The notes beneath the pieces were generated by a model. The model was not told the origin of the DNA. It made no database searches and was given only the letters and a program-made list of their open reading frames with translations. The translations under genes were made by a program, and so were the position numbers. 45,959 nucleotides of DNA from a virus, in the IMG/VR virus record IMGVR_UViG_3300025121_000006, one strand, 5' to 3'. The number at the start of each line of letters is the position of its first letter. Within the stretch, counting starts at the first letter, position 1. This document shows, one piece after another, positions 5,899 through 26,155 of this stretch.

Positions 5899-5904
5899 AT
5901 TAAC

Positions 5905-5928
5905 GGGGCGGGAAACCGCCCCTTTTTT
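5905..5928 (+). terminator. rho-independent terminator
   Basis: GGGGCGG-GAAA-CCGCCCC followed by TTTTTT. Confidence 0.85.
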
Positions 5929-5936
5929 AGTATGTA

Positions 5937-6004
5937 AACCGCGGATTTCGCGGATTACACGGATTGAAAAAACAATCAGCGAAATCTGCGTAATCAGCGG
6001 TTAA
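5937..6004 (+). repeat. junction element: B units, then C units (reverse)
   Basis: AACCGCGGATTTCGCGGATTACACGGATTG ... AATCAGCGAAATCTGCGTAATCAGCGGTTAA. Confidence 0.9.
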
Positions 6005-6018
6005 AAAGGTTTCAGTAA

Positions 6019-6657: not shown

Positions 6658-6724
6658 ACAGGAAGAACACGAAGAAAAGAAATAAACCGCGGATTACGCG
6701 GATTACGCGGATTACACGGATTAA
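6657..6724 (+). repeat. junction element: degenerate A + B units x4
   Basis: AACAGGAAGAACACGAAGAAAAG ... AACCGCGGATTACGCGGATTACGCGGATTACACGGATTAA. Confidence 0.9.
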
Positions 6725-6750
6725 AAGAAGAAAGTAAAGGGTAAATAAAA

Positions 6751-7443: not shown

Positions 7444-7456
7444 GAAGGACGCAATT

Positions 7457-12007: not shown

Positions 12008-12008
12008 G

Positions 12009-12048
12009 AACAGCCAATAGAAACGCAGATTACGCTGATTTATTAACC
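12009..12048 (+). repeat. junction element: AACAGCC + C units
   Basis: AACAGCCAATAGAAACGCAGATTACGCTGATTTATTAACC. Confidence 0.85.
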
Positions 12049-12049
12049 C

Positions 12050-12074
12050 AAGCCGCCGCGGCGCATGAGCGGAG
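12050..12074 (+). promoter_or_regulatory. conserved leader box, copy 1 (upstream of the portal gene)
   Basis: AAGCCGCCGCGGCGCATGAGCGGAG, ending 6 nt before the ATG. It contains the 10-bp palindrome CGCCGCGGCG. Confidence 0.6.
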
Positions 12075-12080
12075 TATGTT

Positions 12081-13763
12081 ATGATTGATTTTACGCAGTT
12101 TGATAGCGATGAAAAAATAGTAAAGGCGATAAGCAGCCATAACGGTCAGCTTCGCAATATCCGAAAGTTCTACGAGGGACTTTGGGATGTCGAGGCTAAG
12201 TTATTTTTGCCCAGAAGATACGACCTTTTGCGGCAGGCGATGAAGGGTCAAAAATACGGGGCAAAGGTCTATGACGGGCATCCGGCCAACGCGGTCAATA
12301 AATTCGTTCTTGGGCTGCAAGGAAACATGATAAGCCGGTCGGTGCCGTGGCTGCAATTTACGACAAGTAACCAGAGATTGTTAAATAACGACGAGGTCAA
12401 AAAGTATTTACAGGAATCGACAGAGCAGGTTCTATGGTCGTTTAATCGCAGTAATTTCTACGGTTCCAGCGTATGGCAGGGTAAAGACGCCTGCACTTTC
12501 GGAACGGGGGCGATGGTACCGGAAATTGATATGGCAAAAGGCAGGATTGTATATCATACCGTCCATCCCGGCGAAAGCTGGATAGCAGATGATCAGTACG
12601 GAAGCGGGGCGGTCTATCAGAGAGAATTCAAGATGGCGGCGATTACGCTATTGGAAAAGTTCGGAGCCGATAAGCTGCCAAGCCAGGTATTGAGGGACGC
12701 GCAGGGCAAGGGGCAGGGTCAGCCCTTTACCGAATATAAATGCCTGCTGGCGATCTATAAGAATGTAAAGCCCAATCCGGATAGTCTCCTGCCGGAGGAT
12801 AAGCCGTATAAGGTATTTTATATCCTTGAAAGCGGGGCGCATTCCAAGAAGGATTCGCTTTTACAGAAAAGCGGTATGGACTGGTTTCCTCTTCTTTGGC
12901 GGCAGGGCAGGGAAGATGGGCTTGCCTACGGGACAAGTATCGCAGCCGACGCCCTTACCGAGGGATTGCAGGTAAACCAGATAGGTAAAAAGCAGCTTGA
13001 GCTATTAGCCATAGCGATAGAGGGCAGATGGCTCATTCACGAGAACCTGCGGAATAAGTTCAAGACTAATCCAGGCGGCAGGACGTATTTTGCAAAAACC
13101 GATGAGGATGTAAGACCCCTATCAGATAAGGCGCAGAACTGGCCCTTGGCCGATGACTACGCGGAGAGGATTCATAGTTCCATAGATGATAAGTTCTTTA
13201 TCAGGTTCTTTGAGCTGCTTAGCAGCGGGGAATTTAAGAATATTACCGCATACCAGGCAAGCCAGATGCTCGGTGAAAAGGCAAGCCTTATGTCGGCGAT
13301 CGTGGGCGAATACGAAGAACATGTTTTAGAGCCGGCGGTCGATATCCAGTTCGCGTTCGAGCAGATGGCAGGCAGAATGCCCCAGCCTCCGGATATACTG
13401 CTCGAAGAGGGCGGCAAGGTGGATATCAGCTATATCGGGCCGTTGGCGCAGATGCAGCGGGCGGTCATGCAGAGCAAAGGGATTGTCAACGCACTGCCGT
13501 TAATGCAGGCGATCGGTGCGATTTGGCCGCAGGCGCTTGTAAAGATAAACGAGATGGAACTTATCGAGGACGCCGGTATCAGCCAGGGTATGAAACAGAC
13601 GTACTTCAAATCGGATGAAGAGGTTAAGGCGATACTCGAACAGCAGGCAGCGCGTCAGGAGGCGATGGAGAACGCCGAAATGGCGGGAAATATGGCAAAG
13701 GCGGCAGGGCCGATGGGTAAACAGATCGAGGCGGGCAGTCCGCTTGATGCGATGATGGGATGA
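12081..13763 (+). CDS. portal (head-to-tail connector) protein, T7 gp8-like
   Basis: 560 aa. Its size, the 'ANAVNKFVLGLQGNMISRSVPWLQF' segment and the M/A/Q-rich C-terminal tail resemble podovirus connectors. Confidence 0.7.
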   Translation: MIDFTQFDSDEKIVKAISSHNGQLRNIRKFYEGLWDVEAKLFLPRRYDLLRQAMKGQKYGAKVYDGHPANAVNKFVLGLQGNMISRSVPWLQFTTSNQRLLNNDEVKKYLQESTEQVLWSFNRSNFYGSSVWQGKDACTFGTGAMVPEIDMAKGRIVYHTVHPGESWIADDQYGSGAVYQREFKMAAITLLEKFGADKLPSQVLRDAQGKGQGQPFTEYKCLLAIYKNVKPNPDSLLPEDKPYKVFYILESGAHSKKDSLLQKSGMDWFPLLWRQGREDGLAYGTSIAADALTEGLQVNQIGKKQLELLAIAIEGRWLIHENLRNKFKTNPGGRTYFAKTDEDVRPLSDKAQNWPLADDYAERIHSSIDDKFFIRFFELLSSGEFKNITAYQASQMLGEKASLMSAIVGEYEEHVLEPAVDIQFAFEQMAGRMPQPPDILLEEGGKVDISYIGPLAQMQRAVMQSKGIVNALPLMQAIGAIWPQALVKINEMELIEDAGISQGMKQTYFKSDEEVKAILEQQAARQEAMENAEMAGNMAKAAGPMGKQIEAGSPLDAMMG

Positions 13764-13771
13764 AAAAATAT

Positions 13772-13887
13772 TTAACCACAAAAAACACGAAGAAAAAGAA
13801 ATTAACCGCGGATTTCGCGGATTACACGGATTAAGAAAATGAAAAAAAACAAAAAAATCAGCGGAATCTGCGTAATCAGCGGTTAAG
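13772..13887 (+). repeat. composite: A + B + C (reverse)
   Basis: TTAACCACAAAAAACACGAAG; TTAACCGCGGATTTCGCGGATTACACGGATTAAG; AATCAGCGGAATCTGCGTAATCAGCGGTTAAG. Confidence 0.9.
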
Positions 13888-13911
13888 AAACGGATTTTAA
13901 AAAGGTTTTAT

Positions 13912-14166
13912 ATGCGAATAACTGAAAACTTAAAATGGCTCTTGAAAAGAAAGCGGTATGGAAAGTTTGGCGGCGGCGATGTGCCCAAGGTGTCGCCTGC
14001 GGCTATTACGCCCACGGCGGGCGATAAAAGCGTTACAGCGGCCAAGGATAACCTGCGTGAGAAACTTCGACGCCAGCAGGGCAGGGCGGCTACGCAGCTT
14101 ACTACGCCGGGGATGCTGAAACCGCCTGATTTGAGTAAGCCGTATCTGAAGGATTCATTGGGATAA
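13912..14166 (+). CDS. small basic virion-module protein
   Basis: 84 aa, K/R-rich, SD AAAAGG, located downstream of the portal gene. Confidence 0.45.
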   Translation: MRITENLKWLLKRKRYGKFGGGDVPKVSPAAITPTAGDKSVTAAKDNLREKLRRQQGRAATQLTTPGMLKPPDLSKPYLKDSLG

Positions 14167-14221
14167 AATAAAAAATCAAAAAGCAAAATGAAAAAATACA
14201 GATTAAATATCAAAAAGTTAA

Positions 14222-14246
14222 AAGCCGCCGCGGCGTTTGAGCGGGG
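14222..14246 (+). promoter_or_regulatory. conserved leader box, copy 2
   Basis: AAGCCGCCGCGGCGTTTGAGCGGGG, ending 6 nt before the ATG at 14253. Confidence 0.6.
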
Positions 14247-14252
14247 ATAGCA

Positions 14253-14789
14253 ATGTTAAAGTTTAGAGAATTTACAGCCAAGGATGCAGAGCTGATCGCG
14301 GCAAACGCGGTCGATAGCGAGCTGCGCGGTAAAAGCGGCGAATGGGTCAAATACTGGTCTTTAGTTTGTGAAAATAAAGGGTTCGGATATACGGCGTTTT
14401 TAACCACGAAAAACACGGAAGAAAATAAAACAGCCGGGTTAAACGCTGATTCCGCAGATTACGCTGATGGAAAATCAGAGGCGGGAGATATTATCGGGGC
14501 GGCGGGGGTGACTTTTTCGGCCAATAGCTGCGGGACGGTGTGGGCGATATTTACGCAGCAGGTCCGCCGATACAGCAAAGAGACTCTGCGGAGTATGAGG
14601 ACTGTTCTTTATGATTTTATTGTGCCGGAATGCGGACTAAAAAAACTGCGGGCATTGTCGAGAGTTAATTTCACGGCGTCGCAGAGATTGCTGGAGGCGA
14701 TGGGGTTTGTTAAAAAGGGAAAAAGAGGCGATTATTATCTATATATAAAACAGTTTAACCACGAAGGACACGAAGATGCACGAAGATAA
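14253..14789 (+). CDS. GNAT-like acetyltransferase carrying an in-frame junction-element insertion
   Basis: The C-terminal 'KKLRALSRVNFTASQRLLEAMGFVKKG' is GNAT-like. Residues 'LTTKNTEENKTAGLNADSADYADG' are encoded by an A + AACAGCC + C composite element. Confidence 0.45.
   Translation: MLKFREFTAKDAELIAANAVDSELRGKSGEWVKYWSLVCENKGFGYTAFLTTKNTEENKTAGLNADSADYADGKSEAGDIIGAAGVTFSANSCGTVWAIFTQQVRRYSKETLRSMRTVLYDFIVPECGLKKLRALSRVNFTASQRLLEAMGFVKKGKRGDYYLYIKQFNHEGHEDARR
14400..14470 (+). repeat. composite A + AACAGCC + C embedded in frame in the GNAT-like CDS
   Basis: TTAACCACGAAAAACACGGAAGAAAATAAAACAGCCGGGTTAAACGCTGATTCCGCAGATTACGCTGATGG. Confidence 0.9.
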
Positions 14790-14790
14790 G
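14749..14790 (+). repeat. junction element: A units spanning a stop/start overlap
   Basis: AACAGTTTAACCACGAAGGACACGAAGATGCACGAAGATAAG. Confidence 0.9.
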
Positions 14791-15360
14791 TGGTTGCGTG
14801 ATTTTGTAAGGCAGGCGGGCAGGTACGTTCCCGATGATGTCGAATTGATAGAGCGTGGCGGAAGAATTTTCTTCGCGCATGCAAGGTTTCGGTTCGACCT
14901 TCTAACATTGGGAGTAATGGCGGCGGGCACGACGATGAACGCGATGGCGGCAAGGCAGCAGGGTAAGGCGAGTGCTGCGATAAATAAATATAACGCGGCG
15001 GTCGATGAGAAGGCGGCCGGCCAGATAGAAAAGGCGGGACTTGCCGAGCAGGCCGAGCGGAAGGACAGGACAAGGCAACTATTAGCGGCCAATAGGGTCG
15101 CTTACGGCAAGAGCGGCGTTGGTATGGCGGGTAGTCCCTTATTAAATGACCTTGACGTTTTGGAAAAAGGAGTGCTCGATAGCGAGATGACCGGCTACAA
15201 CGCAAGGACTTCGGCTGACCAGAAGAGAAGCGAGGCGGTAGCCTCGAGGCTTGCGGCAAATTCGGCCCGAAGGGCGGGCAGGCTGGGGATAGGGCAGGCG
15301 CTGTTCGGCGGTGCGACGGACGCTTTGATACTGAATAGCAGGAAAAAAGAATATGCTTAA
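14776..15360 (+). CDS. putative internal virion (ejection) protein
   Basis: 194 aa, A/G/R-rich. The ATG follows GAAGGACACGAAG directly, and the stop TAA lies inside the next TTAACCACG element. The function is inferred from position. Confidence 0.4.
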   Translation: MHEDKWLRDFVRQAGRYVPDDVELIERGGRIFFAHARFRFDLLTLGVMAAGTTMNAMAARQQGKASAAINKYNAAVDEKAAGQIEKAGLAEQAERKDRTRQLLAANRVAYGKSGVGMAGSPLLNDLDVLEKGVLDSEMTGYNARTSADQKRSEAVASRLAANSARRAGRLGIGQALFGGATDALILNSRKKEYA

Positions 15361-15473
15361 CCACGAAGGACACGAAGAGACACGAAGGAAACAGCCAATT
15401 TTAACGCTGATTACGCAGATTACGCTGATGAAAAAAAGTTTAGGGTTTAGGGTTTAGAAATTAGAGATTAAAG
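15357..15473 (+). repeat. full composite: A x3 + AACAGCC + C x3 + GTTTAGG/AATTAGA heptamers
   Basis: All module types occur in one 117-nt spacer, ending 3 nt before the ATG at 15477. Confidence 0.95.
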
Positions 15474-15476
15474 AAA

Positions 15477-17138
15477 ATGCCGATAGCAAAAGGACAAAGA
15501 CAGGTTTTACCGACGGGCGAAGTTGGAGAGGTTAAGATAAATCCCGGCCTGTACAATAACGAGGCGGGCGCGTTATCGGGGCTTGCCGGAAGCGTATCGA
15601 GACTGGGCATAGCCAATTTCGAGGAAGGGCAGAGGATAAACAGTATTCAGGCGACAAAAGAAACCACGGACGGGATACTGGCCTATGAGACCGATTTTCG
15701 CGATAAGATAGTCGAGCTTAATAAGGATCCCGATTACGCGGGGCGCGGCAAGAAGTTTGACGACTGGCATAAAAAGACCACGACCGAGATTATGGCGGAT
15801 AAAAAGAATCCAAGGGCAATAAAAGACCTCCAGATCGAATTCAAAAGATTGCAGAACAGTCACGGTATGCAGATAGAGTTTGCGGCGGATCGAAGTATCA
15901 TTCAGGACGAGAGGGCGGCCATTCCGGCGAAGACGTCGATATTTGCCGATAACTTTGTCGCGGCGAACAGCGAACAGGAAAAAAAGATTCAACTGAACAG
16001 GGCCGTTGCCTACCTTAAGCAACTGCATATTGACGGGGTACTTAGTAAAAACGAGTTAGAGACGCAGATGCTTAACCTCGACAACACGTTTGTTAAGGCG
16101 ATCCAAAATAAGCTAAAAACCAGTATCGAGGTCGACGCGTTCGCTATCGCGGCAAAGGATGGTTACCCGGCGGCGGAAAAGATGCTGCGTGACCCTGTGG
16201 TCAGGGAAAATCTTATAGCGGGAGGTATGAAGCGGGAGGACGCGGCTGCCCTTTTGAGGGATATCGAGGATAACGTAAAGGACGCCAGGGCGGGCGAACA
16301 GGAGGCATTGAGACAAAACCGCCAGGCGCTTGGCAATGAGGTCTTTAAGGCCATTACAGAGAAGCGGTACGCCGACGCGAGGACGCTTATAAATAGCGGC
16401 AAAGACGGGGTCGCGTTTGAGGCTACAGGGGAAAATTCAAAGACGAGCTGGACGTCGCTATTGGATGGGGCCAAGACAAAAGGCGGCGAAACAGAGCTTA
16501 ACGAAAAGACCTGGGATGTTTACTGGAATACACTCAAAAAGGTCACAAACAACCCAGATTCGATTAAAGAGGGCGAACTGGAGGCGATGGTAGGTAAAGG
16601 TATAAGTATCGGCGATTACAAGGAATTTCAAGGCATTTTAGGCAAGAATAAAGAATCCGATATCCTCAAAAACGAGGGTGTCGTCAACGGGCTAAAGACC
16701 ATTTACGGGCTGCGAAGCGCCGGTTCGTTTGTCGGATTGAAGCCCTCTGATATGGAGACGGTCGATAAACTGGCCAACGAAAAGGCGTGGCGGACTGTCA
16801 CACAGGAGTTTACTCGCTGGGCAGAGGCTAACGCCGATAAGGTGAACGACCCGGTATGGGACGAAATGGTATCGGAAAAAATCCAGAAATTAACACAGCC
16901 GTTCGAGCAGAAGGCGCAGCTTAGCAGCTTTGTCAGTTTCTTTCGTCCGGGCGGCAGGGATAAGGCAAAGCTTGAAAAGCTGCGAAACGAGCAGTTGGCC
17001 GAGGCGGTCGGCGATACCGGCGGCGGCGTAAAGACGGTTGATAGCGAGGCGGTCAGTAAATATTACGACCTTGCCAATGGCGATGAAGCGGAGGTAAAGC
17101 GACTGATGAAAAAGGATGGATACACGATAGAGGATTAA
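15477..17138 (+). CDS. putative internal virion (ejection) protein
   Basis: 553 aa, helical and charged, located between the portal module and the giant ORF. The stop is embedded in an A-type element. Confidence 0.4.
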   Translation: MPIAKGQRQVLPTGEVGEVKINPGLYNNEAGALSGLAGSVSRLGIANFEEGQRINSIQATKETTDGILAYETDFRDKIVELNKDPDYAGRGKKFDDWHKKTTTEIMADKKNPRAIKDLQIEFKRLQNSHGMQIEFAADRSIIQDERAAIPAKTSIFADNFVAANSEQEKKIQLNRAVAYLKQLHIDGVLSKNELETQMLNLDNTFVKAIQNKLKTSIEVDAFAIAAKDGYPAAEKMLRDPVVRENLIAGGMKREDAAALLRDIEDNVKDARAGEQEALRQNRQALGNEVFKAITEKRYADARTLINSGKDGVAFEATGENSKTSWTSLLDGAKTKGGETELNEKTWDVYWNTLKKVTNNPDSIKEGELEAMVGKGISIGDYKEFQGILGKNKESDILKNEGVVNGLKTIYGLRSAGSFVGLKPSDMETVDKLANEKAWRTVTQEFTRWAEANADKVNDPVWDEMVSEKIQKLTQPFEQKAQLSSFVSFFRPGGRDKAKLEKLRNEQLAEAVGDTGGGVKTVDSEAVSKYYDLANGDEAEVKRLMKKDGYTIED

Positions 17139-17166
17139 CCACGAAGGACACGAAGAAAGCACGAAG
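17135..17166 (+). repeat. junction element: A units x3
   Basis: TTAACCACGAAGGACACGAAGAAAGCACGAAG. Its TAA is the stop of the upstream gene. Confidence 0.9.
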
Positions 17167-17176
17167 AAATTAAAAA

Positions 17177-20100
17177 ATGGCAGATTTTGCAACAACATTC
17201 GCGGCGGTCGATAAGCAGAAAAAGGACAGGTTCGCACAGACTTTTAGAGAGGTCGAACAGGCCAAAGAAAACGAGGCATGGAATACGCTTGCCGCGGAGG
17301 GGGCTGTTTACGAGCCGTTCTTTGAGAAAATTGAGCAGGCCGAACTTGCCGAGCGGGAACTGTTTAGCAAAGAGCAACTTGATTACAGTAAGAGACTGGG
17401 CGGGAAAGTGCCCAATATGGCGTTATACGACGAGGCACTTAACTACGCCGACGATAAGACCATCAGTAAAATGGACGACAGCCAAAGGTGGGAACTGGTC
17501 AAAGAGAACAGGGCAAAAAGAGCCGAAATGGGTTATAAGTTTCTGCCGGTAGATAAGAAAAAACTTATGACGGGAGGCTATTCGGCGGACGGAAAGCCGG
17601 TTTTTAACGGGCCGACTATCAGGGCGGCCAACGCGACGTATTTAGCGGGCGCTACGGGGATGGAGGTCGAAAGTGCGGCGGTTCTCTACGATTCGCTGGT
17701 GACGGGGCTTTGGGGCGATAAAGAACCGAACGACATCAAGCCGTTGGGTAAATTGATTCGAAAATGGTATTCGGATAAAAGGCTTATAGAAAGCGGGATA
17801 TATCCCGAGATTTACAGGGCTGCGCAGAGGTACGCGGCGGGCGATAATACGGTTGACTGGGATATTGTAAGGGGCAATCTTTCGAGGGAAAAAGAGGAAC
17901 TGTTCAATTCCTATATCAGCCAGATGGGCAGGCCAAAACAACGGGGCGTTTTCGGCAAGACAGCGGAGGTCTTAAAACGAAGTATCGGCAGATCGGCGCA
18001 GAATATAACGGATTTTAGAACCTTGGTTGTGCCGGAAAAAACATTAAGCCAGCCAATTGAGCAGATGAAGGCCTTTAGCGAATTTAAGGCAAGGGAGGGC
18101 AGAGAGCCGACGGCGGAAGAATCTTTGCTGATTATGCAGGAAGCGACAAGCCGAATGAAAGAGCGGGTAATAGGCCGCAAAAAGAGTAAAGAGGCACTTG
18201 AAGCGGGCGATCCGGTTAAAGGGGAAAGCATACCCGGCAAACTGTTCTACGGCACACTTTCAATTGCGCCAGATGTACTGGCAAGCGCAGGACTGACGAT
18301 AGCGGCAAAAAGCCCCGTAGCGAGCTTTCAATACTGGTATATGCTGACGGCGACGGATATCTATACCGATATGGCCGATCTGGGATTCGAGGACGAGGCG
18401 GCCACGAATACAGCGAAAATCCTTGCCCTGCCGGTCGCGGCGGTAGAGTTCCTGCAGGCGGGCCAGTGGACGAAAGGATTGACCGGTGCGGCCAGGAAAA
18501 AAGCGGTCGCAAAGGCGCAGCAGGGTTTGACAAATTATCTGGCCGGTAAGCTCAAAGGTGGGCTGGTCAATTTCGGCAAAGAATACGGCCAAGAGATTCA
18601 GCAAAGCGGCCTGAAGGTCGCGGGCATGGCGTTTGCCTCATCGCTTACAGAGGATGCGCCGGATGTGAACTGGTGGGACGATGTGATAAGCCCGGAGATT
18701 GGCGGACTGGGCGAGGCGCTTTGGAGTTTTCCGGGGCTTACCGTTGGGTTTGGGGCAGCCGAGATTGGCAGCGAAGCGAAGATGGTACGCAGGATTATGA
18801 AAGATCATCCCGGCATCGATGCGGCCACGGCTCGCGCGGCGGTCTATAACGCCAAAAGTGGGGCGTTCGATGACGCGATAGAGGCAGGACTGGAAGCGAA
18901 ACAATTGATTCCGTTTACGGTCGAGGAACTAAATAGCCGGGTCGAAGAGACAAAGGCAAAATTAACTGACCTATCAGCGATGGAGGGCGGGCAAAATAGC
19001 GAACTTCTTGAATATACCCAGCGCAGGCTTGCGATACTGAAGGATGGCGGGGACAGGGGCGAACTTGCCGCATCGGCCAGCCGTTACGGGATTGACGAGG
19101 ATTTCGACGAGGAAACAGCCGAACAGCCATTCACCACAGAAGGCACAGAAGAAATAAAAGGCACAGAAGGGAAAATGGGGGCGGAATACAGGGATGCGGT
19201 GGTTGGGGCGGTGCGGGGGATTTTAGAGGCGAATGGGATTGCGGCACAAATCAGGGCGGTCGAAAATATAGAACTGCCCGAAGGTGCGGAAGGTCAGCAG
19301 GCGGCGGCGCAGCAGGCAAGGGGGGCGTTCTATTTCGATGGGGACGGGGCCAAGGTAATACAGCTTGCGTTTGCGTATAACGAAAATCGCAGGCCGGCGG
19401 ATATCACAACGGCGGGTCATGAATCGTATCACGCGCTGGCGGAGCTATTGACCGATGAGGAACGGGCGGCGGTCGCTGCCCAGTTTGGCGAAAATGAGGA
19501 TATGCAGGCGGAAGGGTTCGGGGTATGGTTAGGGGATAGGGTACAGGGTAGAGGGGATAAAGCAGGGGGAATAGTTTCACGGGCGTTTGAGAGGATCGCG
19601 GAGCTTTTAAAAAAGATTTATGCGGCGTTAAAAAAAGAGGGGCTTACTTATAAAAGTGTGTTTGAGGGTGTCGCCGCAGGCGAGTTAAAAGGCAGAACAT
19701 CGAACATCGAACGCTCAACATCGAACGTTGAATCAGGAAGGCAAACAGCCGGTAGTATTTTATATCACGGTACAGATAATGCAGAATCTATTTTGAAAAA
19801 CGGATTTACTTTCAAAAGTAGAAATTTCAAAGGGGAACGGGGCGAATTTGGAAACTCCATATCACTTTCGCCGGATAAAAATTTCGCCAAAATATACGGC
19901 AAAGATGTCATAGAAATAAAACTTAAGCCCAATATCAAATTGTTTGAAAATGAGGGCTATTCCGTTGATCATTTCAGTAGAACGAAATTTCATGATAGAG
20001 TGGAAGAGTTAGAGTCTAATGGGATTTCCGGTGAAAAAGCCACAGAAACGGCTATCGACGAATTAAAAGAGCAGGATTATGGCGGTATAAAAACCACTTA

Positions 20101-23100
20101 CGATTCAGGAAAAATAGAAATAACCATTTTTAACCCCAAAGATATCCAAATTCAGAAAGTCGAACAGCCGAATTTAGCCACAGAGGACGCAGAGAAGGCG
20201 GGGTTGAAATTCCAGACGGAAGATGATACAATGGGCGGCATGGCAGGCAAAAAGGCTGCCCGCGACATAGCCTCTCAAAAAACAGCCGAAGCGGGAAAGG
20301 GGCCGGTGAAACCAGCCGAATTGCAAAGACTTGAAGGGTTGTGGGATGAAGTTCAACCGCAGGTCATTCAATGGGAAAAAGAAAACCCAAAGCCAAAGCG
20401 CCCACAAGATATTGGGTTGCGGGCAAATAGCGAAATTCCACTGGATACACCAGGCCGGAAAGTTATTATTGAAGATATTCAAAATCGATTAAAACAGTCA
20501 AAAAAAGATTGGGAAGTAAAAAGAGATGAGGTGGTCAATAACTTTTTGGGAGGGGATTTAGACAAACTTCAACAATTACAAGCTGAATTTCGTTTTTCAA
20601 AAGAAGATTTTCGGAAAAGTCAATTTCCTCAAACCTATTCAAAAGAAATCAAATCTTTTAGAGATTTAGGATTAAACAGTTTAGCTGATAGTGTGGCGGA
20701 ATGGGGACGCGATGCTCTTGGTCTTTTTAAGCCCGATTGGTATGCACACGCCAAATATGTTGCCATAAAAATAATAAAAGAAAACGGCGGGATACAGACA
20801 TACAAAAGTAACAAAGGTGAATCAGGGTCAATTTACTTTAAGATGCCCAGTGGTCAAGAAATAAGGATTTCAGACCATGAACTACCAGAACACAGAGCAG
20901 GCCTTAATGAAATCCCAAATTGGGACGAAATTATATTAGATAAAATCATACCAGTGCAAGATATAATCGAAAGAACAAACGACATTCTGGGCATCGAATC
21001 CTCTTTTAACCACCCCGCCCCCGATGCAGGGGGGCAAGCCCCCGCGGCGAATGAGCGGGGCGAAGTTAAATTCCAGATCGATACCCAGCCGGTCAGCAAG
21101 CTGGAAGCTTCTTTCCGTAAGGATGCGGAGGAATATGTGGCCAATGTCTATATCGAAGGGGCGGACAGGGTGAACGCCTTTATCGAAGAGACAAGAGGCA
21201 GGGCAGGCCAGATTTCAAACGAGATGGATAAAAACGACGCGATGGCCGAGGTTGACGCAGCCAAGGCGGCGGCGGATGAGGCGTTTGCGGCGGCGGGGCT
21301 GGTGGGGGCTTTGCAGGGTATGAAGGGGGCAAAAAAGCCGGTTCTTGTCAATGACGCCAAGGGGGTCTATAAAGGCCAGCAGCAGCTTGCGATAGAGGCA
21401 GGCATCAGAGCCAAGGCGGCGGTCGATAAGGCCTTGTATCAGCAGCAGGCAAGGCCGAAGCGGGCAAAATACCTCGATGGATTTGCCAACAGGTTTTTCG
21501 GCCATTTGAATGACGCCAAGAGACTTGCCGGCAGGGGCGCGGCAAAGAGCGGAAAGCAGGCGAAAAAGACCTTTGAATATCTGGCCGTGCCGATAGCCAA
21601 CAGGCTCGAGGCGATAAGCCCGACCGTATTTCAGCAGGTTTTATATACCGAGTATAAAATCAAGACAAGGACGGCGGCGATGGCCAGGGAGGCGGTTCCG
21701 TTGCTTGAGAAGCTAAACCGGTTTCAAAAGGATAATACCGCCAAATTCGACGATTTCGCCATTGCATGGCGGGATGGCGACTTTACCGAGGCCGACAGGA
21801 TTGCAGAGCGGTACGGGTTCGCCGATGAATTTACGGCGGTTCGGGCGGTACTCAACGAGATATTCGCAATGGCTAACCGGGTGGGGATGGAGATAAGATA
21901 CGCTCAAGGGTACGGGCCAAGGCACATAACCGATATAGAAGGGTTTATGGAAGCCATCGGGGGCACGGAGGCACATTCGCAGATAGCCGAGGCTATACGC
22001 AACGCCGAAAAGAAAAAAGGACGCCAGCTTGAAGCTGACGAGAGGCTGCGGTTGATTAATACACTGATTCGCGGCTATACGTCAAGCGGGATCGCGTTAT
22101 CGAGGGCGGGACACGCTAAAGAGAGGGGTATCGAGAACACAAGCGAACTGGGCGAATTCTACGCAAGTCCGCAGGTAGCCCTGATGCACTATATAACAGA
22201 GATGAACGAAAAGGTTAGCTGGCGGGAGTTTTTCGGCAAGGAGACAAAGGATCTTGTAAATCTGCGTGGTGAAAAATCCAGGCTCCTGACCAGATTAAAC
22301 GCGTTATCGGGCAAGACGGCGGGCAAGGTCTTTTTGATGGGTAAGGGCTTTAGCGAGCTAAATGAAATAGACTACGCAGAGCATATCAAGAGTGAGTGGA
22401 AAAAACTCGACGAGGTCAGCGCAAAGATAACAGTTGCCGACCAGAAAAGCCTATCGGAATCGGTGGCAAGCTATGTCGACGAAAAGTATATCAGGCCAAG
22501 CGAGGCGGCGGGCAGTCCCGGTAAACGGGGCGAGGATTTGGCCAGTTTATTGCAGGCTCTTATCGAGCCGAAATCGGTGAGCGACCGCAATCTTAAATTC
22601 CTGCGAGACCTGGGCTATATTACCACACTTGCAAATCCGTTTTCGGCGATGACGCAGTTGAAAGATATCGGCGTCTCGGCGTATCGTGATATCTGGGGTT
22701 TTTTGCCACAGACAATTAAGGCCGCCGTCAATAAGGGTGAGCTAAACTTAGAGGATATCGGGGCGGCTCTGTTCGGCGAGGAGCTTACGGCCGAATCCGT
22801 GGGCAGGGCGGTCGCCGCGTCAATGAAATATTCGGGATTCGCTTATATAGATAGATTAGGCAAAACGACCTATATAAACACCGTAATAAACAAATACCGC
22901 AGGGAATCGGCTGGTTTGAGCGATGCCGATATCTCGCAGATGGCGGCTGGCACGAAGAAAAAGAGCGAGACATTTGAGCGGGTCGAACGGTTCTTCGGCG
23001 ATAAGACAAGCGATGTGGTCAAAGAAATCAGGGACGGCGGGATAACGGATAATATAAAATTCCTTGCGTTCGCCGAACTTGCGGACGTGCAGCCGATAGC

Positions 23101-23575
23101 GATGAGCAGTATGCCGGCCGGCTACGCCAGGGCGGGCAACCTGCGGCTGATGTATATGATGAAAAGCTTTACGATCCGCCAGATAAACTGGATTTACCGC
23201 GAATCGATAAAAGAGATGGGCAGTAAAAAGACGTTCGCACGAGGGGCGAAAAGGCTTATCCAGCTCGCGATTACGCTGGAGGCGTTCAATATCGGCATCG
23301 AAGTGCTGCGTCAGCTTGCCAAGGGCAAAGAACCCGACGAGATAGACATCGCAGATATCGCCATTGATGAGGCGATGGGTTATATGATGGCAAGCAGGTA
23401 CAGTGTCCAGAATATAAGGAGGGAAGGATTCGCAGGGTATATGAAACAGGTCGCCCCGCCGACAAAGCCATTCGACTGGATAGTGCAGGGCAAACCAGAT
23501 AAAGCGGTAAGGAATATCCCGATACTGGGCGAGCCGTATTACTGGTGGTTCGGGGCGGGCAGTGAAAAGAAGTAA
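17177..23575 (+). CDS. giant mosaic virion/ejection protein (polyvalent-like) with HExxH and PARP-like ART motifs
   Basis: An uninterrupted 2132-aa ORF in the position of T7 gp16. It contains HESYH (19418-19432), 'LYHGT...GEFGNSISLS...KIEITIF' (19741-20160), and vestigial in-frame junction elements. Confidence 0.6.
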   Translation: MADFATTFAAVDKQKKDRFAQTFREVEQAKENEAWNTLAAEGAVYEPFFEKIEQAELAERELFSKEQLDYSKRLGGKVPNMALYDEALNYADDKTISKMDDSQRWELVKENRAKRAEMGYKFLPVDKKKLMTGGYSADGKPVFNGPTIRAANATYLAGATGMEVESAAVLYDSLVTGLWGDKEPNDIKPLGKLIRKWYSDKRLIESGIYPEIYRAAQRYAAGDNTVDWDIVRGNLSREKEELFNSYISQMGRPKQRGVFGKTAEVLKRSIGRSAQNITDFRTLVVPEKTLSQPIEQMKAFSEFKAREGREPTAEESLLIMQEATSRMKERVIGRKKSKEALEAGDPVKGESIPGKLFYGTLSIAPDVLASAGLTIAAKSPVASFQYWYMLTATDIYTDMADLGFEDEAATNTAKILALPVAAVEFLQAGQWTKGLTGAARKKAVAKAQQGLTNYLAGKLKGGLVNFGKEYGQEIQQSGLKVAGMAFASSLTEDAPDVNWWDDVISPEIGGLGEALWSFPGLTVGFGAAEIGSEAKMVRRIMKDHPGIDAATARAAVYNAKSGAFDDAIEAGLEAKQLIPFTVEELNSRVEETKAKLTDLSAMEGGQNSELLEYTQRRLAILKDGGDRGELAASASRYGIDEDFDEETAEQPFTTEGTEEIKGTEGKMGAEYRDAVVGAVRGILEANGIAAQIRAVENIELPEGAEGQQAAAQQARGAFYFDGDGAKVIQLAFAYNENRRPADITTAGHESYHALAELLTDEERAAVAAQFGENEDMQAEGFGVWLGDRVQGRGDKAGGIVSRAFERIAELLKKIYAALKKEGLTYKSVFEGVAAGELKGRTSNIERSTSNVESGRQTAGSILYHGTDNAESILKNGFTFKSRNFKGERGEFGNSISLSPDKNFAKIYGKDVIEIKLKPNIKLFENEGYSVDHFSRTKFHDRVEELESNGISGEKATETAIDELKEQDYGGIKTTYDSGKIEITIFNPKDIQIQKVEQPNLATEDAEKAGLKFQTEDDTMGGMAGKKAARDIASQKTAEAGKGPVKPAELQRLEGLWDEVQPQVIQWEKENPKPKRPQDIGLRANSEIPLDTPGRKVIIEDIQNRLKQSKKDWEVKRDEVVNNFLGGDLDKLQQLQAEFRFSKEDFRKSQFPQTYSKEIKSFRDLGLNSLADSVAEWGRDALGLFKPDWYAHAKYVAIKIIKENGGIQTYKSNKGESGSIYFKMPSGQEIRISDHELPEHRAGLNEIPNWDEIILDKIIPVQDIIERTNDILGIESSFNHPAPDAGGQAPAANERGEVKFQIDTQPVSKLEASFRKDAEEYVANVYIEGADRVNAFIEETRGRAGQISNEMDKNDAMAEVDAAKAAADEAFAAAGLVGALQGMKGAKKPVLVNDAKGVYKGQQQLAIEAGIRAKAAVDKALYQQQARPKRAKYLDGFANRFFGHLNDAKRLAGRGAAKSGKQAKKTFEYLAVPIANRLEAISPTVFQQVLYTEYKIKTRTAAMAREAVPLLEKLNRFQKDNTAKFDDFAIAWRDGDFTEADRIAERYGFADEFTAVRAVLNEIFAMANRVGMEIRYAQGYGPRHITDIEGFMEAIGGTEAHSQIAEAIRNAEKKKGRQLEADERLRLINTLIRGYTSSGIALSRAGHAKERGIENTSELGEFYASPQVALMHYITEMNEKVSWREFFGKETKDLVNLRGEKSRLLTRLNALSGKTAGKVFLMGKGFSELNEIDYAEHIKSEWKKLDEVSAKITVADQKSLSESVASYVDEKYIRPSEAAGSPGKRGEDLASLLQALIEPKSVSDRNLKFLRDLGYITTLANPFSAMTQLKDIGVSAYRDIWGFLPQTIKAAVNKGELNLEDIGAALFGEELTAESVGRAVAASMKYSGFAYIDRLGKTTYINTVINKYRRESAGLSDADISQMAAGTKKKSETFERVERFFGDKTSDVVKEIRDGGITDNIKFLAFAELADVQPIAMSSMPAGYARAGNLRLMYMMKSFTIRQINWIYRESIKEMGSKKTFARGAKRLIQLAITLEAFNIGIEVLRQLAKGKEPDEIDIADIAIDEAMGYMMASRYSVQNIRREGFAGYMKQVAPPTKPFDWIVQGKPDKAVRNIPILGEPYYWWFGAGSEKK
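19113..19174 (+). repeat. vestigial junction element in frame inside the giant ORF
   Basis: AAACAGCCGAACAGCCATTCACCACAGAAGGCACAGAAGAAATAAAAGGCACAGAAGGGAAA followed by an in-frame ATG. TTAAC has changed to TTCAC, so there is no stop. Confidence 0.8.
19684..19751 (+). repeat. tandem ACATCGAAC units + AACAGCC box in frame inside the giant ORF
   Basis: GTTAAAAGGCAGAACATCGAACATCGAACGCTCAACATCGAACGTTGAATCAGGAAGGCAAACAGCCGG. Confidence 0.8.
20162..20203 (+). repeat. vestigial junction element in frame inside the giant ORF
   Basis: GAACAGCCGAATTTAGCCACAGAGGACGCAGAGAAGGCGGGG. Confidence 0.75.
21036..21060 (+). promoter_or_regulatory. conserved leader box, copy 3, embedded in frame in the giant ORF
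   Basis: AAGCCCCCGCGGCGAATGAGCGGGG, with no ATG downstream. Confidence 0.5.
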
Positions 23576-23578
23576 AAA

Positions 23579-23645
23579 TGGAAAATTTGAAATTTGAAAA
23601 GGAGTTCAATATGCTTAACCACGAAAAGCACGAAGGGCACAAAAG
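23579..23645 (+). repeat. heptamers + SD + ATG + A units (translated)
   Basis: GGAAAATTTGAAATTTGAAAAGGAG...ATGCTTAACCACGAAAAGCACGAAGGGCACAAAAG. Confidence 0.9.
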
Positions 23646-25632
23646 AGGCTATAGACTATGGACTAAAGGCTATGGGTTGCTTGTTGTTTGTTTCTTGTTT
23701 CTTGCCCCTTGTCTGGCGACGGTGACGGAGACTTCGACCAAAGTGCAGTATTCATGCAACGGGTCGAGTACGGCATTTGCGTTCAGTTTCCCCATTGTAG
23801 AAACTTCGGATATCGTCGTGATTCTGCGGACGGTAGCGGACGGGACGGAGCTTGTTTTGACCGAGGGGGTCAATTACAATGTGTCGGCGACAAATAACGA
23901 TTATTCGCAGGGCGGGACCGTAACGGCGACTACGGCTTATTCGAGCCTATACCAGCTTACCATCATGAGAGACACGCCCGATACGCAGGAGGCCGATCTC
24001 GATGATTCAGGCACGCTTAGACTGGAGACGCTCGAAGATGCGATGGACAGGGCGACAATGCAGATTCAGCAGCTTACCGAATCGTATAGCAGGGCTATAC
24101 ATTATCCGCGAAGCGATTCGACTTCGCTTACGGGCGAGCTTGACGACTCGATAAGCAGGAAGGGCGGGTATTTAGGTTTTAGCAGCTCTACCGGCGAGGC
24201 GCTTGTGGTGGCGGGACTTACTCCTTCGGATGTGACGGTGTCGCCGTTTGCCGAAACGGCTCTTGACGATGCGACAGGGGCGGCCATGCTGACTACGATG
24301 GGGGCAATGGCGGTATTTAATGTCAAGACCTACGGAGCAATCGGCGACGGCGATACAAACGATACGGCGGCGATAACCTCGGCGATAACCGCCGCGGCGG
24401 CGGCGGACGGCGGAATCGTGTGGTTCCCGACGGGGGTGTACCTGTGCAATGTGACGCTCTCTAACGACAATATCCGCCTATTGGGGGCGGGCAGCGAATC
24501 GCCGGTCGATTGGGACGGCGGGGATGAAAACTGCTCGATGCTGAAGGCGTACACGACCGACCCCGTTATAACGATATATCCAAGTTCCGGCGGCGGGCAG
24601 GTCAGCGGGATACAGATAAGTAATCTGACAATTGACGGCAACGATACAAGCAAGGGAATTTATTATCAGGCCGACAACCCGTATATACTCTATTTTTGCA
24701 GATTTGAAAATCTTAATATAAACAATACCACTTACGGCATCGATTTATATACCTACGGCGGGGTAAGCGCGGTAAAGAATACTATGAACCAATGCGTGTT
24801 CGACCATATTACCGTGTGGGATTTTACCGTTAACGGAATTATGACATCTTCCGTCGGCAGTTATAACAACTGGAGCAGAATTTTAGTTTATGACAGCGGC
24901 AATACATCGACCAGTTACGGTATTTATCATAGAGGGTTGAATGATAACTGGAACGGCGTTACAACAAACACCAAAGTAAGAATTGACGGCGCTAATACAG
25001 AAATGGCAAATCTGACCGTAGAGGGAATATATGGTACAACCGGAGTGGCTACAACTGCTACAACGCCGGCAATAACCGTCGCAGGTTATGCTCAAACTTT
25101 TATCAATGTCGATCTGAAGAGTACCGACGACGGAGGCGGCACGGCGAACTATGGAATAGCGGCGTATAACGGGCCAAACTACTTTATAAATGTCAGATAC
25201 TGGGGCAATGTCACAGAATTAACTTACCCGTTTACAATCAACCAGAATTCAAAGGGATATGTCTATTTTTACGCATTCCCGTCAACGGGTACGAAATTAG
25301 ACTCTACCGCCCATTATAACGCTACCCTTGCAACTTATTCCAACGCCTTTAAGAACTGGACTATCGCGGGCGATTTGACTTACGTCTGCGACGGGCTTGG
25401 TCAAATCCCTATGCCGCAATCGGCACTGCCAGCCCATTCGGCGAATCCGACAAACGCGGTCGATGGATTGAGAGGCCGCATAGTATTTAATGATACAGGC
25501 GACGACCACTTTTACGGGACGGTGCAAAAGAACGGGTTAAGAGTCTGGAAGCGATTAGACACAGACCCGGCGGATTTTATAAGCTATGAGAATGCAAGCG
25601 TATTTTACGAAGAAGAAATTGTCACGTACTGA
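23611..25632 (+). CDS. tailspike with pectate-lyase-like beta-helix domain
   Basis: 'FNVKTYGAIGDGDTNDTAAITSAI...GGIVWFPTGVYL' is the pectate_lyase_3-type tailspike signature. A strong SD (AAGGAG) lies 7 nt before the ATG at 23611. Confidence 0.7.
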   Translation: MLNHEKHEGHKRGYRLWTKGYGLLVVCFLFLAPCLATVTETSTKVQYSCNGSSTAFAFSFPIVETSDIVVILRTVADGTELVLTEGVNYNVSATNNDYSQGGTVTATTAYSSLYQLTIMRDTPDTQEADLDDSGTLRLETLEDAMDRATMQIQQLTESYSRAIHYPRSDSTSLTGELDDSISRKGGYLGFSSSTGEALVVAGLTPSDVTVSPFAETALDDATGAAMLTTMGAMAVFNVKTYGAIGDGDTNDTAAITSAITAAAAADGGIVWFPTGVYLCNVTLSNDNIRLLGAGSESPVDWDGGDENCSMLKAYTTDPVITIYPSSGGGQVSGIQISNLTIDGNDTSKGIYYQADNPYILYFCRFENLNINNTTYGIDLYTYGGVSAVKNTMNQCVFDHITVWDFTVNGIMTSSVGSYNNWSRILVYDSGNTSTSYGIYHRGLNDNWNGVTTNTKVRIDGANTEMANLTVEGIYGTTGVATTATTPAITVAGYAQTFINVDLKSTDDGGGTANYGIAAYNGPNYFINVRYWGNVTELTYPFTINQNSKGYVYFYAFPSTGTKLDSTAHYNATLATYSNAFKNWTIAGDLTYVCDGLGQIPMPQSALPAHSANPTNAVDGLRGRIVFNDTGDDHFYGTVQKNGLRVWKRLDTDPADFISYENASVFYEEEIVTY

Positions 25633-25633
25633 C

Positions 25634-25726
25634 AAAAAAAATTAAAAATAAAATATTAAAAATCAAAAATGAAAGGAGTCAAAAACAATGTTTAACCACG
25701 AAGGACACGAAGGGACACGAAAAGGG
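25634..25726 (+). repeat. A-rich heptamers + SD + ATG + A units x3 (translated)
   Basis: AAAAATTAAAAATAAAATATTAAAAATCAAAAATGAAAGGAG...ATGTTTAACCACGAAGGACACGAAGGGACACGAAAAGGG. Confidence 0.9.
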
Positions 25727-26155
25727 ATTTGCTGCTTGTTAATTGTTGCCTGCTGCTTAATGGGGTTTGCAAGCGCGGCGGATTTGAAGGAAAAGAGTAT
25801 CTCGCTGCTCTCGGCGACGACGGTTGCCTTTAACGCCAACGCCGATACTACGCTTTATACCGTGCCGACGGGTAAGCGATGCGTTCTGCATTCGGCGGTA
25901 GTTGTGGCGGGCGCGGACGCGGGGGCGACGACGACGCTTTCTATCGGGCAAAATACGGCGGAAACCGACTTTGTTGCCGCCCATACGCTCTCGAACCTCG
26001 ACGCGGCTTACGATGCGGTTATATTGCAGCCGGTACCGGCTACCACACCGTTGAAGATAAAAAGCTACGCAGCCGGCACGGTGATACAGGCGCAGGTCGC
26101 CAGCCAGTCGGGCGGAGCGACAAATACGGTGTACCTGTTCGGATTTTTGTATTAA
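25688..26155 (+). CDS. small secreted-type virion-module protein
   Basis: 155 aa, SD AAAGGAG. The N-terminus MFNHEGHEGTRKGICCLLIVACCLMGFASA is encoded by an A-type element followed by a hydrophobic core. Confidence 0.5.
   Translation: MFNHEGHEGTRKGICCLLIVACCLMGFASAADLKEKSISLLSATTVAFNANADTTLYTVPTGKRCVLHSAVVVAGADAGATTTLSIGQNTAETDFVAAHTLSNLDAAYDAVILQPVPATTPLKIKSYAAGTVIQAQVASQSGGATNTVYLFGFLY

Follow-up and report, generated by a model that had tools for sequence, protein, structure and literature searches.

Polymorphic toxins swap cassettes at short junction motifs (VENN of CdiA, PxxxxDPxGL of Rhs) and the tail-fibre adhesins of T-even phages recombine at conserved motifs; in T7 the ejection protein gp16 follows gp14 and gp15, and T4 Alt is a packaged enzyme that is delivered to the host. 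The polyvalent proteins of phages and conjugative elements, among whose domains are ADP-ribosyltransferase (ART), MuF-C and peptidase domains, have been described by Iyer, Burroughs, Anand, de Souza and Aravind (2017, PMC5512222). At the level of DNA, the closest precedents are the PeSL mobile regulatory cassettes of T4-type phages (Arbiol et al. 2010, PMC2839356; PMC4122927), the Rickettsia palindromic elements (RPEs), which are intragenic miniature transposable elements (reviewed in PMC10969869), and the start-associated sequences (SAS/ESAS) of Cluster K mycobacteriophages (Pope et al. 2011, PMC3203893). Polyvalent proteins shuffle their domains to an extreme degree, and the DNA mechanism by which they are assembled is not known. 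Here we analyse a giant open reading frame (ORF) at positions 17177-23575 of the viral record IMGVR_UViG_3300025121_000006 of IMG/VR, a stretch of 45,959 nucleotides (nt) hereafter called the window, and ask how its modules came together.

Architecture of the giant ORF

The giant ORF encodes 2132 amino acids (aa) in a single frame without a stop across 6.4 kb, as an earlier note on this DNA had described. Comparison of sequences shows it to be a mosaic: the scaffold is inherited vertically, and the middle is specific to the lineage. The search with the whole protein returned two homologues, P0001 and the more distant P0002. P0001 (2441 aa; locus L001, Logan SRR15116522) is a single ORF in a locus syntenic with the window and matches the giant protein in one high-scoring segment pair (HSP) over aa 1-842 (56% identity) and in another over aa 1296-2132 (64%); in between it carries ~790 aa that are unrelated, a MuF_C/PBECR domain (1.4e-25) among them, and both cassettes described below are absent. 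Homology ends on the left at ...GELKGR|TSNIE (nt ~19700), inside the junction that we call J2, and resumes on the right at E1296 (nt 21062), 2 nt past junction J4. The mosaic reading is thus supported by the closest relative, which shares the ends and differs in the middle. We read the stretch from nt ~19700 to 21061 as a cargo bay, bracketed by the N-terminal, HExxH and C-terminal modules, whose content is exchanged between phages (Table 1). In P0002 an ART-PolyVal domain was found at 2.4e-42, and in eight IMG/VR loci the giant proteins share the C-terminal module only (25-32% identity). Scans of metagenomes and IMG/VR with this module retrieved nothing closer than P0001 (no relative above ~60% protein identity).

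The middle holds two compositionally foreign modules which, on the evidence of their homologues, are independent genes elsewhere. Maximum-likelihood segmentation of G+C content placed change points at 19604, 20176, 20458, 21010 and 21049; the successive segments between them have 37.5%, 53%, 35% and 85% G+C, against 55-56% outside, and change points fall at junctions J3 and J4. G+C at third codon positions (GC3) is 0.34 in cassette 1 and 0.28 in cassette 2 compared with 0.58-0.64 in the flanking modules, a drop that amino-acid composition alone does not account for. The AT-rich stretches pointed out by the earlier note are therefore real, by change points as well as by GC3. Both cassettes count among the stretches with the lowest G+C in the genome, together with a minus-strand block at 26.5-28.2 kb and a region near 1.1-1.6 kb.

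Sharp compositional breaks in a contig of metagenomic source could also betray a chimeric assembly, or stops and frameshifts lost in assembly, the ORF then being several separate genes in reality. However, the four junctions keep one frame with no stop over the whole 6.4 kb, the outer architecture recurs in P0001, where it is also encoded by a single ORF, and a further locus (L145, see below) independently has cassette 2 in frame. Furthermore, the contig closes on an exact 127-nt direct repeat (1-127 = 45833-45959), so that the window most likely represents an entire phage genome, assembled as a circle of ~45.8 kb. We judge such an artefact to be highly improbable.

The HExxH module (residues 667-841; module A) shows 58% identity to P0001 and 27% to P0002; H82, E83 and H86 are invariant. 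Since its identity to P0001 is similar to that of the flanks, it is vertically inherited. Pfam gave a single weak match (DUF5700, E 0.017), a structural model (pLDDT 75) had no PDB fold match below E 0.3 and a PDB sequence-profile search was also empty; it is therefore the HExxH motif itself that makes module A a candidate zincin-like peptidase, which may process the giant protein. Within this conserved module, a further in-frame 7-nt array of low score (TAGGGGA x4.3) spans 19530-19559. P0001 has a different sequence of equal length in this loop, which points to periodicity arising there without insertion, and the array may be background.

Upstream of this module lies J1, which the earlier note had counted as a scar of gene fusion. 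In P0001, which is free of the elements, the one HSP over aa 1-842 runs without a break through N-terminal module, linker, Met and HExxH module; the linker there, ~21 nt shorter, and the following Met read NEEQETEQTQEQTSGT-M. As linker and Met667 already exist in an element-free relative, J1 is not a fusion scar. Alignment to relatives thus bore out the cassettes, absent from P0001 and present elsewhere as separate genes, and did not bear out a fusion at J1.

Table 1. Features of the giant ORF and of the surrounding genome (positions in the window)
Feature	Position	Strand	Remarks
Giant ORF, 2132 aa	17177-23575	+	one open frame
Conserved N-terminal module, aa 1-645	17177-19111	+	56% identity to P0001, part of HSP aa 1-842; GC3 0.60
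J1, element-like linker	19113-19177	+	AACAGCC x2 (19114, 19122); TTCACCACAGAAGGCACAGAAG at 19130-19151; TTCACC; 9-nt array CACAGAAGG x4; in-frame ATG at 19175 (Met667)
Module A, helical HExxH module	19175-19702	+	HESYH at 19418-19432
J2	19684-19753	+	tandem 7-nt array GAACATC x4.6 (19695-19726), then AACAGCCGG; AACAGCC at 19744; left homology breakpoint against P0001
Cassette 1, AT-rich, predicted PARP-like ADP-ribosyltransferase domain (ILYHGT ... EITIF)	19754-20161	+	35% G+C; GC3 0.34
J3	20162-20203	+	composite AACAGCC-GAAT-TTAGCC, two 9-mers, GAAGGCGGGG; 20163-20198 = AACAGCCGAATTTAGCCACAGAGGACGCAGAGAAGG
Sigma-70-like promoter (consensus match) and ATG	20204-20242	+	TTGAAA-17-(TG)TACAAT at 20204-20232, 7 nt, ATG 20240 (Met1022)
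AAATTCCAG (KFQ), left direct-repeat copy	20207-20215	+	
Cassette-2 unit	20240-21002	+	5' motif M.G.KA.RDIA (CGCGACATAGCC, 20261-20272), linker with AACAGCC 20281, IRISDHELP domain
J4	21003-21061	+	TCTTTTAACC at 21002-21011, including TTTTAACC at 21004-21011; GC hairpin GCCCCC-GATGCAG-GGGGGC at 21017-21035; leader box AAGCCCCCGCGGCGAATGAGCGGGG at 21036-21060
Conserved C-terminal module, aa 1296-2132	21062-23575	+	64-66% identity to P0001; 25-32% to P0002 and eight IMG/VR loci
AAATTCCAG (KFQ), right direct-repeat copy	21068-21076	+	opens the C-terminal module
Leader box	12050-12074	+	6 nt before start of gene 12081
Leader box	14222-14246	+	6 nt before start of gene 14253, which begins MLKFR
Leader box	45617-45641	+	ends 3 nt before an ATG; upstream of gene 45645/45655
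Canonical composite element	14386-14481	+	TTAACCACGAAAAAC.., AACAGCC, TTAAACGCTGATT..; in frame in ORF 14253-14789
Major head protein	1848-2876		
T7-type tail tube B/nozzle	9368-12007		phrog_376 at 2e-217; 42% identity to Pelagibacter Skadi phages
Adaptor	12081-13763		
T7_gp14-family protein	14776-15360		E 2e-5
gp15-slot gene, 553 aa	15477-17138		
Tail fibre	23578-25632		
Large terminase	41978-43513		

Two gene-like modules in the cargo bay

Neither module A nor modules B plus cassette 2 matched anything in word-based homology searches, and the families of the two cassettes were found by exhaustive search only: HMMER with residues 837-1295 returned 28 proteins that fall into two groups, the cassette-1 and the cassette-2 families. 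Cassette 1 (residues ~856-995) is, to judge from its motifs and its family, a divergent PARP-like ART domain. Some of its relatives accompany LPD14 or LPD38 in polyvalent proteins, and others stand alone, with 119-226 aa. The free-standing ones begin with M-ILYHGT, the point directly after the AACAGCC of J2, and end a few residues past VIFDPxxV, the point directly before the AACAGCC of J3.

Cassette 2 contains what we call the IRISDHELP domain (residues ~1058-1276), whose family shares the core WYxGAKQFV..GGKRYHKS..GSVYY..IRISDHELPETE..EIVLD. Most of them are free-standing, 220-340 aa long, and have their end at the point where J4 starts; embedded copies occur in the polyvalent proteins P0023 (with ArdA), P0024 and P0003 and at locus L151. 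The AlphaFold model of the cassette (pLDDT 85) is a helical bundle with a small sheet and had no PDB fold match below E 0.3; the residues of J4 are modelled as disordered (pLDDT 42-53). The scan for the 5' motif of the cassette gave no match, and the scan with its profile added one distant embedded copy, at L151. There (IMGVR_UViG_3300005689_000302, 1454-5086) a large viral ORF has its IRISDHELP part flanked on both sides by the junction peptide HPR.EDG.F.EKDG.AHNG.AMN, present in three copies, and a second LYRA-type module follows. This suggests that cargo modules may be surrounded by repeated junction motifs more widely.

The best match of cassette 2 is P0003, a giant protein of 1666 aa (locus L145) whose gene is followed by a pectate-lyase-type tail-spike gene. 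Residues 1017-1286 of the window protein are colinear with residues 168-515 of P0003, at 33% protein and 47% nucleotide identity over the domain, and the nucleotide identity peaks at both ends. At the 5' end, TTGAAA-17-(TG)TACAAT is the best sigma-70-like match in 5850-25800 (10/12), and the aligned position in L145 holds a perfect TTGACA-16-(TG)TATAAT (501-528; 12/12, best of the locus), 7 nt from the conserved ATG. A distance of 7 nt between the -10 hexamer and the ATG is the spacing expected of a leaderless transcript. After the ATG, ATGG.AGGCAA.AAGGC..CCCGCGACATAGCC.CTCAAA is nearly identical in both. The 3' end reads TCT-TTT-AAC-C in window and L145, with 20 of 24 nt identical over eight codons (TCTTTTAACC), and 4-5 nt further on a GC hairpin follows in each, the stem being GCCCCC/GGGGGC in the window and CGCCACC/GGTGGCG in L145. 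In the free-standing homologue P0004, which ends ...AGT-TAA-CC, the stop lies inside GTTAACC. In L145 the unit also stands out in composition (GC3 0.40-0.47 against 0.65-0.73). Sharing promoter, ATG, coding sequence and TTAACC-hairpin, two otherwise unrelated giant virion genes thus hold the same unit in frame, and the alignment with this second phage shows cassette 2 to carry what read as gene-boundary signals. In the window the unit is then followed by the phage's own leader box and by the C-terminal module.

A duplicated junction at the start of the C-terminal module

The nonamer AAATTCCAG (Lys-Phe-Gln) occurs three times in the window against 0.44 expected, and two of the copies, at 20207 and 21068, bracket cassette 2. 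Removal of 20207-21067 (861 nt, 287 codons) would leave ...AGLKFQIDTQP, the junction that P0001 has (QVKFQIDTAP). In L001, AAATTCCAG (2 copies there against 0.2 expected) lies within a 15-nt direct repeat, CAAGTGAAATTCCAG, that brackets a 576-nt MuF_C/PBECR module (14315-14899). The codon before AAATTCCAG is TTG or GTG in 3 of the 4 copies. Thus AAATTCCAG stands on both sides in the window as well as in L001: different modules are inserted in the two phages, in either case where the C-terminal module starts, and the junction is duplicated each time.

Boundary repeats of the genome and the four junctions

Short repeats lie at almost every gene boundary of the window. A typical unit consists of AACAGCC, 2-4 nt, TTAACC, TTAAAC or TTAGCC, and two or three 9-nt tandem units (e.g. 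CACGAAGGA, CGCGGATTA, CGCTGATTA; the reverse complement AATCAGCG... is present too), often followed by arrays of 7-nt units (GTTTAGG, ATTTGAA and others). The strings of this kind that had been reported from J1 to J4 are all found in the ORF (Table 1). AACAGCC is read there in two different frames and the period of the J2 array, 7 nt, is not a multiple of 3; these are therefore features of the DNA and not peptide repeats.

The commonest boundary repeat is the exact 21-mer TTAACCACGAAGGACACGAAG (copies e.g. at 1113, 2885, 14755, 15357, 17135, 25692, 26165 and 41710). It is found identically in at least 120 bacterial contigs of many phyla (loci L003-L135), including Herpetosiphon, Acidobacteriota, Verrucomicrobiota, Brocadiaceae, Anaerolineae, Desulfobacterales, Gammaproteobacteria, Flavobacterium and Spirochaetaceae, and in 13 IMG/VR contigs; an inverted arm no more than 150 nt away, giving a hairpin, accompanies the bacterial copies in 57/122 among the matches listed. 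In the window the repeats are mostly unpaired, unlike these hairpin copies, and co-oriented with transcription (18 forward against 3 reverse-complement arms on the + strand). Neither a transposase nor a target duplication nor an empty site was identified for the repeats; the gathering search of the window against Rfam gave no family, a literature search for a 16-mer of the repeat no paper, and a search of GenBank phages no match to an intergenic element block. Repeats directly follow an ATG at 8266, 15354, 23611, 25688 and 28998 (ATG-NTT-AAC-CAC-GAA-GG, M-x-N-H-E-G-H-E) and run in frame into the downstream ORF, as in ORF 25688-26155 (which starts MFNHEGHEG) and the tail-fibre ORF; these are either over-called gene starts or repeats translated as N-terminal extensions.

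In only 4/16 canonical copies of the window does a long upstream ORF end at the TAA of TTAACC, and a general role as stop of the upstream gene was dropped, the bacterial copies giving 24/135 against 39/270 in control frames. The earlier note had taken the change of TTAAC to TTCAC in J1 for the loss of such a stop; in the frame of the giant ORF the canonical TTA-ACC would read Leu-Thr, and the argument fails there.

A second family is the 25-nt leader box AAGCC..CGCGGCG..TGAGCGGGG, with 4 copies in the window (12050, 14222, 21036, 45617) against 0.01 expected. As had been noted, the box elsewhere sits just 5' of start codons, the three other copies ending 3-6 nt before starts; in J4 it is followed by the codon GTT and no start. 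In blastn-short comparisons of gene interiors with all gene boundaries the J4 box alone was significant (E 0.009), and by this measure it is a true copy of the leader box. The start of gene 14253, MLKFR (ATG TTA AAG TTT AGA), resembles the VKFQ (GTT AAA TTC CAG, 21065) with which the C-terminal module starts, so that the similarity runs from the box into the first codons.

It is possible that these features are working signals and nothing vestigial: the promoter, the starts Met667 and Met1022 and the hairpins and box of J4 would then give isoforms or regulate translation. The perfect promoter of L145 would fit, as would the geometry of -35, -10, 7 nt and ATG, kept despite 33% protein identity, the conservation in P0001 of Met667 with AAGGG before it, and a box that elsewhere lies 6 nt 5' of start codons. 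As to the J4 fold, its -31 kcal/mol is no better than that of shuffles (z = -1.4), the same being true of the folds of the box copies and of J1 to J3, and a conserved box hairpin was dropped for this reason. The missing start after the J4 box also speaks against such a role, and the promoter scans are consensus matches only. This reading is compatible with cassette insertion and we hold it tentatively, as the less probable view of these signals.

Origin of the mosaic

We propose that two AT-rich modules, the PARP-like ART and IRISDHELP, were acquired horizontally into the cargo bay. Cassette 2, at least, would have entered whole, with sigma-70 promoter, leaderless-positioned ATG, coding sequence and TTAACC stop region with GC hairpin, just 5' of the (V/L)KFQ start of the C-terminal module, AAATTCCAG being duplicated in the event. 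Formerly non-coding flanks, stop-free in the frame used, would now be translated as disordered linkers. The modules presumably entered by recombination at short conserved junction sequences, and the strings of J2 and J3 (AACAGCC, TTxxCC and 9-mers, 7-mer arrays) and the J4 box would be carried-in boundary DNA or recombination homologies; J1 would stand apart, as an element-like sequence within a linker that was there before. The internal promoter may also express a further product, which would start at Met1022 and extend to the C-terminus. On the model of T4 Alt and the polyvalent proteins, the giant protein would be packaged and ejected with the DNA, thereby delivering its effector domains.

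Several observations weigh against this proposal. For cassette 1, the match to ART-PolyVal (E 1.2e-4, 23.3 bits) is below the cut-off of 31.2 bits, and of the H-Y-E triad His (YHGT) and Glu (IEITIF) are present, the consensus Tyr (GVYL) being Ser, which makes ART activity uncertain. A pair of AACAGCCG copies (19744 and 20163) brackets this cassette, and as a clean target duplication it was rejected, since the copies differ in frame and the distance between them, 419 nt, is no multiple of 3. The left change point, 19604, lies ~80-100 nt 5' of J2, within sequence homologous to P0001. Promoter-like sites show no overall excess in 5850-25800 (29 against 23.4 in shuffles). SFN..A...GG follows the IRISDHELP domain in both the window and P0003, and TTTTAACC in J4 may thus be part of the cassette and not the phage's own element. 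We found no donor and no presence/absence polymorphism. The remaining objections concern the repeats and are taken up with two alternatives.

The first is coincidence: J1 to J3 would be ordinary low-complexity acidic or Gly-rich linkers, which would owe their likeness to the intergenic repeats to a purine-rich composition in common and to local replication slippage, and the cassettes and the J4 box alone would be real. In the blastn-short comparison J1 and J2 matched nothing and J3 gave a 13-nt match at E 0.55; an nhmmer profile of 16 canonical TTAACCACGAAGG copies did not detect J1 and scored J3 marginally at E 1.9. Given these nulls we do not call J1 to J3 copies of any family, and their likeness to the boundary repeats is one of architecture (AACAGCC, TTxxCC, 7- and 9-nt units). 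The linker of L001 (GAAACCGAACAGACACAAGAGCAGAC) also aligns in part with J1, including AACAGAC, and low-scoring tandem arrays occur in other gene interiors too. On the other hand, the composite AACAGCC+N0-6+TTNRMC occurs twice in the giant ORF (0.024 expected) and AACAGCC five times, all within 19114-20287 (0.66 expected), and of 1000 codon shuffles of the ORF none reached two composites or five AACAGCC. The two reading frames of AACAGCC and the 7-nt period of J2 are not what peptide-level linkers would give, and all marks fall within ~20 nt of independently defined homology or domain boundaries. Coincidence is accordingly, in our opinion, very unlikely.

The second alternative, and the main rival, is colonisation in frame: invasive repeats of this lineage would survive in tolerant linkers and termini, with no relation to the arrival of cassettes. 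The elements had been said to occur elsewhere only between genes. This does not hold, for a canonical composite element, which also reads TTTTTAACCACGAAAAACACGGAAG..AACAGCC..GTTAAACGCTGATTCCGCAGATTACGCTGAT and adds the peptide LTTKNTEENKTAGLNADSADYADGK, lies in frame inside ORF 14253-14789, and another copy forms the N-terminus of ORF 28998, where it encodes residues 3-11. The former insert is spanned by a full-length match to the GNAT profile Acetyltransf_3 (positions 2-138/138; E 0.003 with the insert, 0.0017 without it); both values miss the Pfam cut-off and make the match suggestive only. An element in frame within an apparent single GNAT domain nevertheless implies that repeats insert in frame here without any cassette. 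None of the repeat families was found in L001, L002 or the eight IMG/VR loci (L136-L143); with the closest and all other relatives lacking them, the repeats are lineage-specific, apparently recent, and the fusions of the scaffold are older than the repeats. The J1 linker already present in P0001 fits colonisation, as do the 21-mer of so many bacterial contigs, often a hairpin like a miniature transposable element, and the precedent of in-frame RPEs (PMC10969869). What colonisation leaves unexplained is the promoter, ATG and TTAACC-hairpin shared with L145, which is free of the repeats, the duplication of AAATTCCAG, seen also in element-free L001, and the coincidence of the marks with the termini of free-standing homologues; moreover, no resident element has a close copy in J1 to J3. 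We regard it as unlikely, though deserving serious consideration.

Cassette insertion as a whole, that is, one gene with a cargo bay, two acquired modules and cassette 2 as an expression unit, is the explanation towards which we lean, with moderate confidence. Of gene fusion or cassette insertion at junction elements, as first suggested for this ORF, the mosaic stands, with cassettes absent from P0001 and free-standing elsewhere, the J1 scar does not, and insertion mediated by the elements would be a plausible route. It is tempting to speculate further on an integron-like cargo bay inside the ORF of giant podovirus ejection genes, with self-contained small-gene cassettes captured at (V/L)KFQ/AAATTCCAG and/or boundary repeats, each bringing a promoter, an ATG placed as in leaderless transcripts and a TTAACC-hairpin end, with flanks evolved to be stop-free that would be regulatory signal and protein linker at once, and with effectors both pre-packaged and expressible de novo, a generalisation that we consider doubtful at present.

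Genome setting

Nearly all genes of the window, the DNA of an uncultured T7-like phage, are on the + strand. The gene order, with the nozzle, a gp14-family and a gp15-slot gene before the giant ORF and the tail fibre after it, gives the ORF the position that internal virion (ejection) proteins have in T7, that of gp16. The giant protein had no Pfam match above threshold and none in PHROGs or, by tblastn, in GenBank phages; homology to gp16 was likewise found in none of the three, and it is the position of the gene alone that agrees. The cultured podovirus Cobetia phage Carin1 (PQ119497.1, locus L150) is a GenBank relative through the nozzle, and its gp32 (L150 14638-20415), a hypothetical protein of 2854 aa in the slot equivalent to that of the giant ORF, has no detectable similarity to the window protein.

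The window also encodes two tyrosine recombinases, at 27348-28163 (-) and 36006-36902 (+), with Phage_integrase matches at 5e-22 and 2e-27; the former has an N-terminal SAM-like domain and sits within the AT-rich minus-strand block at 26.5-28.2 kb. In ORF 33866-34702, the gene of an HTH_36 protein, five tandem 25-nt units ACGACAAAAGTGTCGTTACCCCCTC (34172-34298) contain an internal palindrome apiece; they resemble the iterons of an origin, placed inside the gene of a replication initiator.

Comparison with known systems

The giant ORF resembles the gene of T7 gp16 in its slot, after the gp14/gp15 equivalents and before the tail fibre, and its product would resemble T4 Alt as a packaged enzyme delivered to the host, an analogy that is proposed here. 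It differs from both in lacking detectable similarity, in being much larger and in having a swappable middle. The short in-frame (V/L)KFQ (AAATTCCAG) marks the joining point of variable modules and could serve as a recombination site, as do the VENN, Rhs and adhesin motifs; unlike these, it is duplicated around an internal module, not at a variable C-terminal tip, and is seen in two related phages only.

SAS are asymmetric conserved motifs a few nt before the starts of unrelated genes, and the leader box AAGCC..CGCGGCG..TGAGCGGGG similarly precedes starts by 3-6 nt (6 nt to the ATG for the boxes at 12050 and 14222, 3 nt for that at 45617, all on one strand). The analogy is functional only: the sequence of the box is unrelated, there are only 4 copies, and one is inside an ORF without a start codon after it. 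RPEs, for their part, are short repeats that lie in frame within genes and add fold-compatible peptides, and the multi-copy element in ORF 14253-14789 looks like the same phenomenon, with an inverted arm in 57/122 of the bacterial copies among the matches listed. RPEs are, by contrast, bacterial palindromes of ~100-150 bp with no link to cassette borders, whereas the window copies are unpaired, co-oriented with transcription (18 against 3) and in a phage.

The repeated short promoter/stem-loop units of PeSLs at gene boundaries provide portable homology for the swapping of small, often orphan genes, and the window shares this arrangement in outline. PeSLs work between genes in hyperplastic regions, whereas the boundary sequences of the window are translated inside one ORF. 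Nor do the repeats combine a strong sigma-70 promoter and a terminator: counts of promoter- and terminator-like sequences in 5850-25800 equal shuffle expectation and the repeats are not among the matches, the 5' end of cassette 2 alone, among the boundary sequences of this interval, scoring as a promoter. If boundary repeats do mediate capture, PeSL-type modular shuffling would extend from between genes to within genes. In a limited literature check we found no description of promoter-bearing gene cassettes in frame within giant virion proteins.

The polyvalent proteins are the nearest counterpart. As in these, a very large protein in a virion context would combine unrelated effector-type domains (a predicted ART and a peptidase-like HExxH module; MuF-C/PBECR in P0001), injection with the DNA is predicted and domain content varies strongly among relatives. 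The virion-gene context is evident, the window encoding capsid, nozzle, adaptor, gp14-family protein, tail fibre and terminase; domains of disparate activity are recognisable in the relatives P0001 (MuF_C) and P0002 (ART-PolyVal), the scores of the window's own domains being sub-threshold. The scaffold modules and the IRISDHELP domain matched no Pfam polyvalent-protein family, and they are new candidates, respectively for a giant-protein scaffold absent from cultured phages and for an effector family. The suggestion of a polyvalent injected protein therefore holds as regards the virion gene slot and context, less so as regards the sub-threshold Pfam evidence, while injection is argued by analogy with polyvalent proteins. 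Whereas the published account (PMC5512222) covers domain architectures, the window adds junctions at the level of DNA, namely promoter, ATG, TTAACC-hairpin, leader box and repeats. The giant ORF would be a recent product, its cassettes being still foreign in composition and one of them keeping promoter, start, stop region and hairpin in frame, and it shows concretely how phages may build multi-weapon polyvalent proteins.

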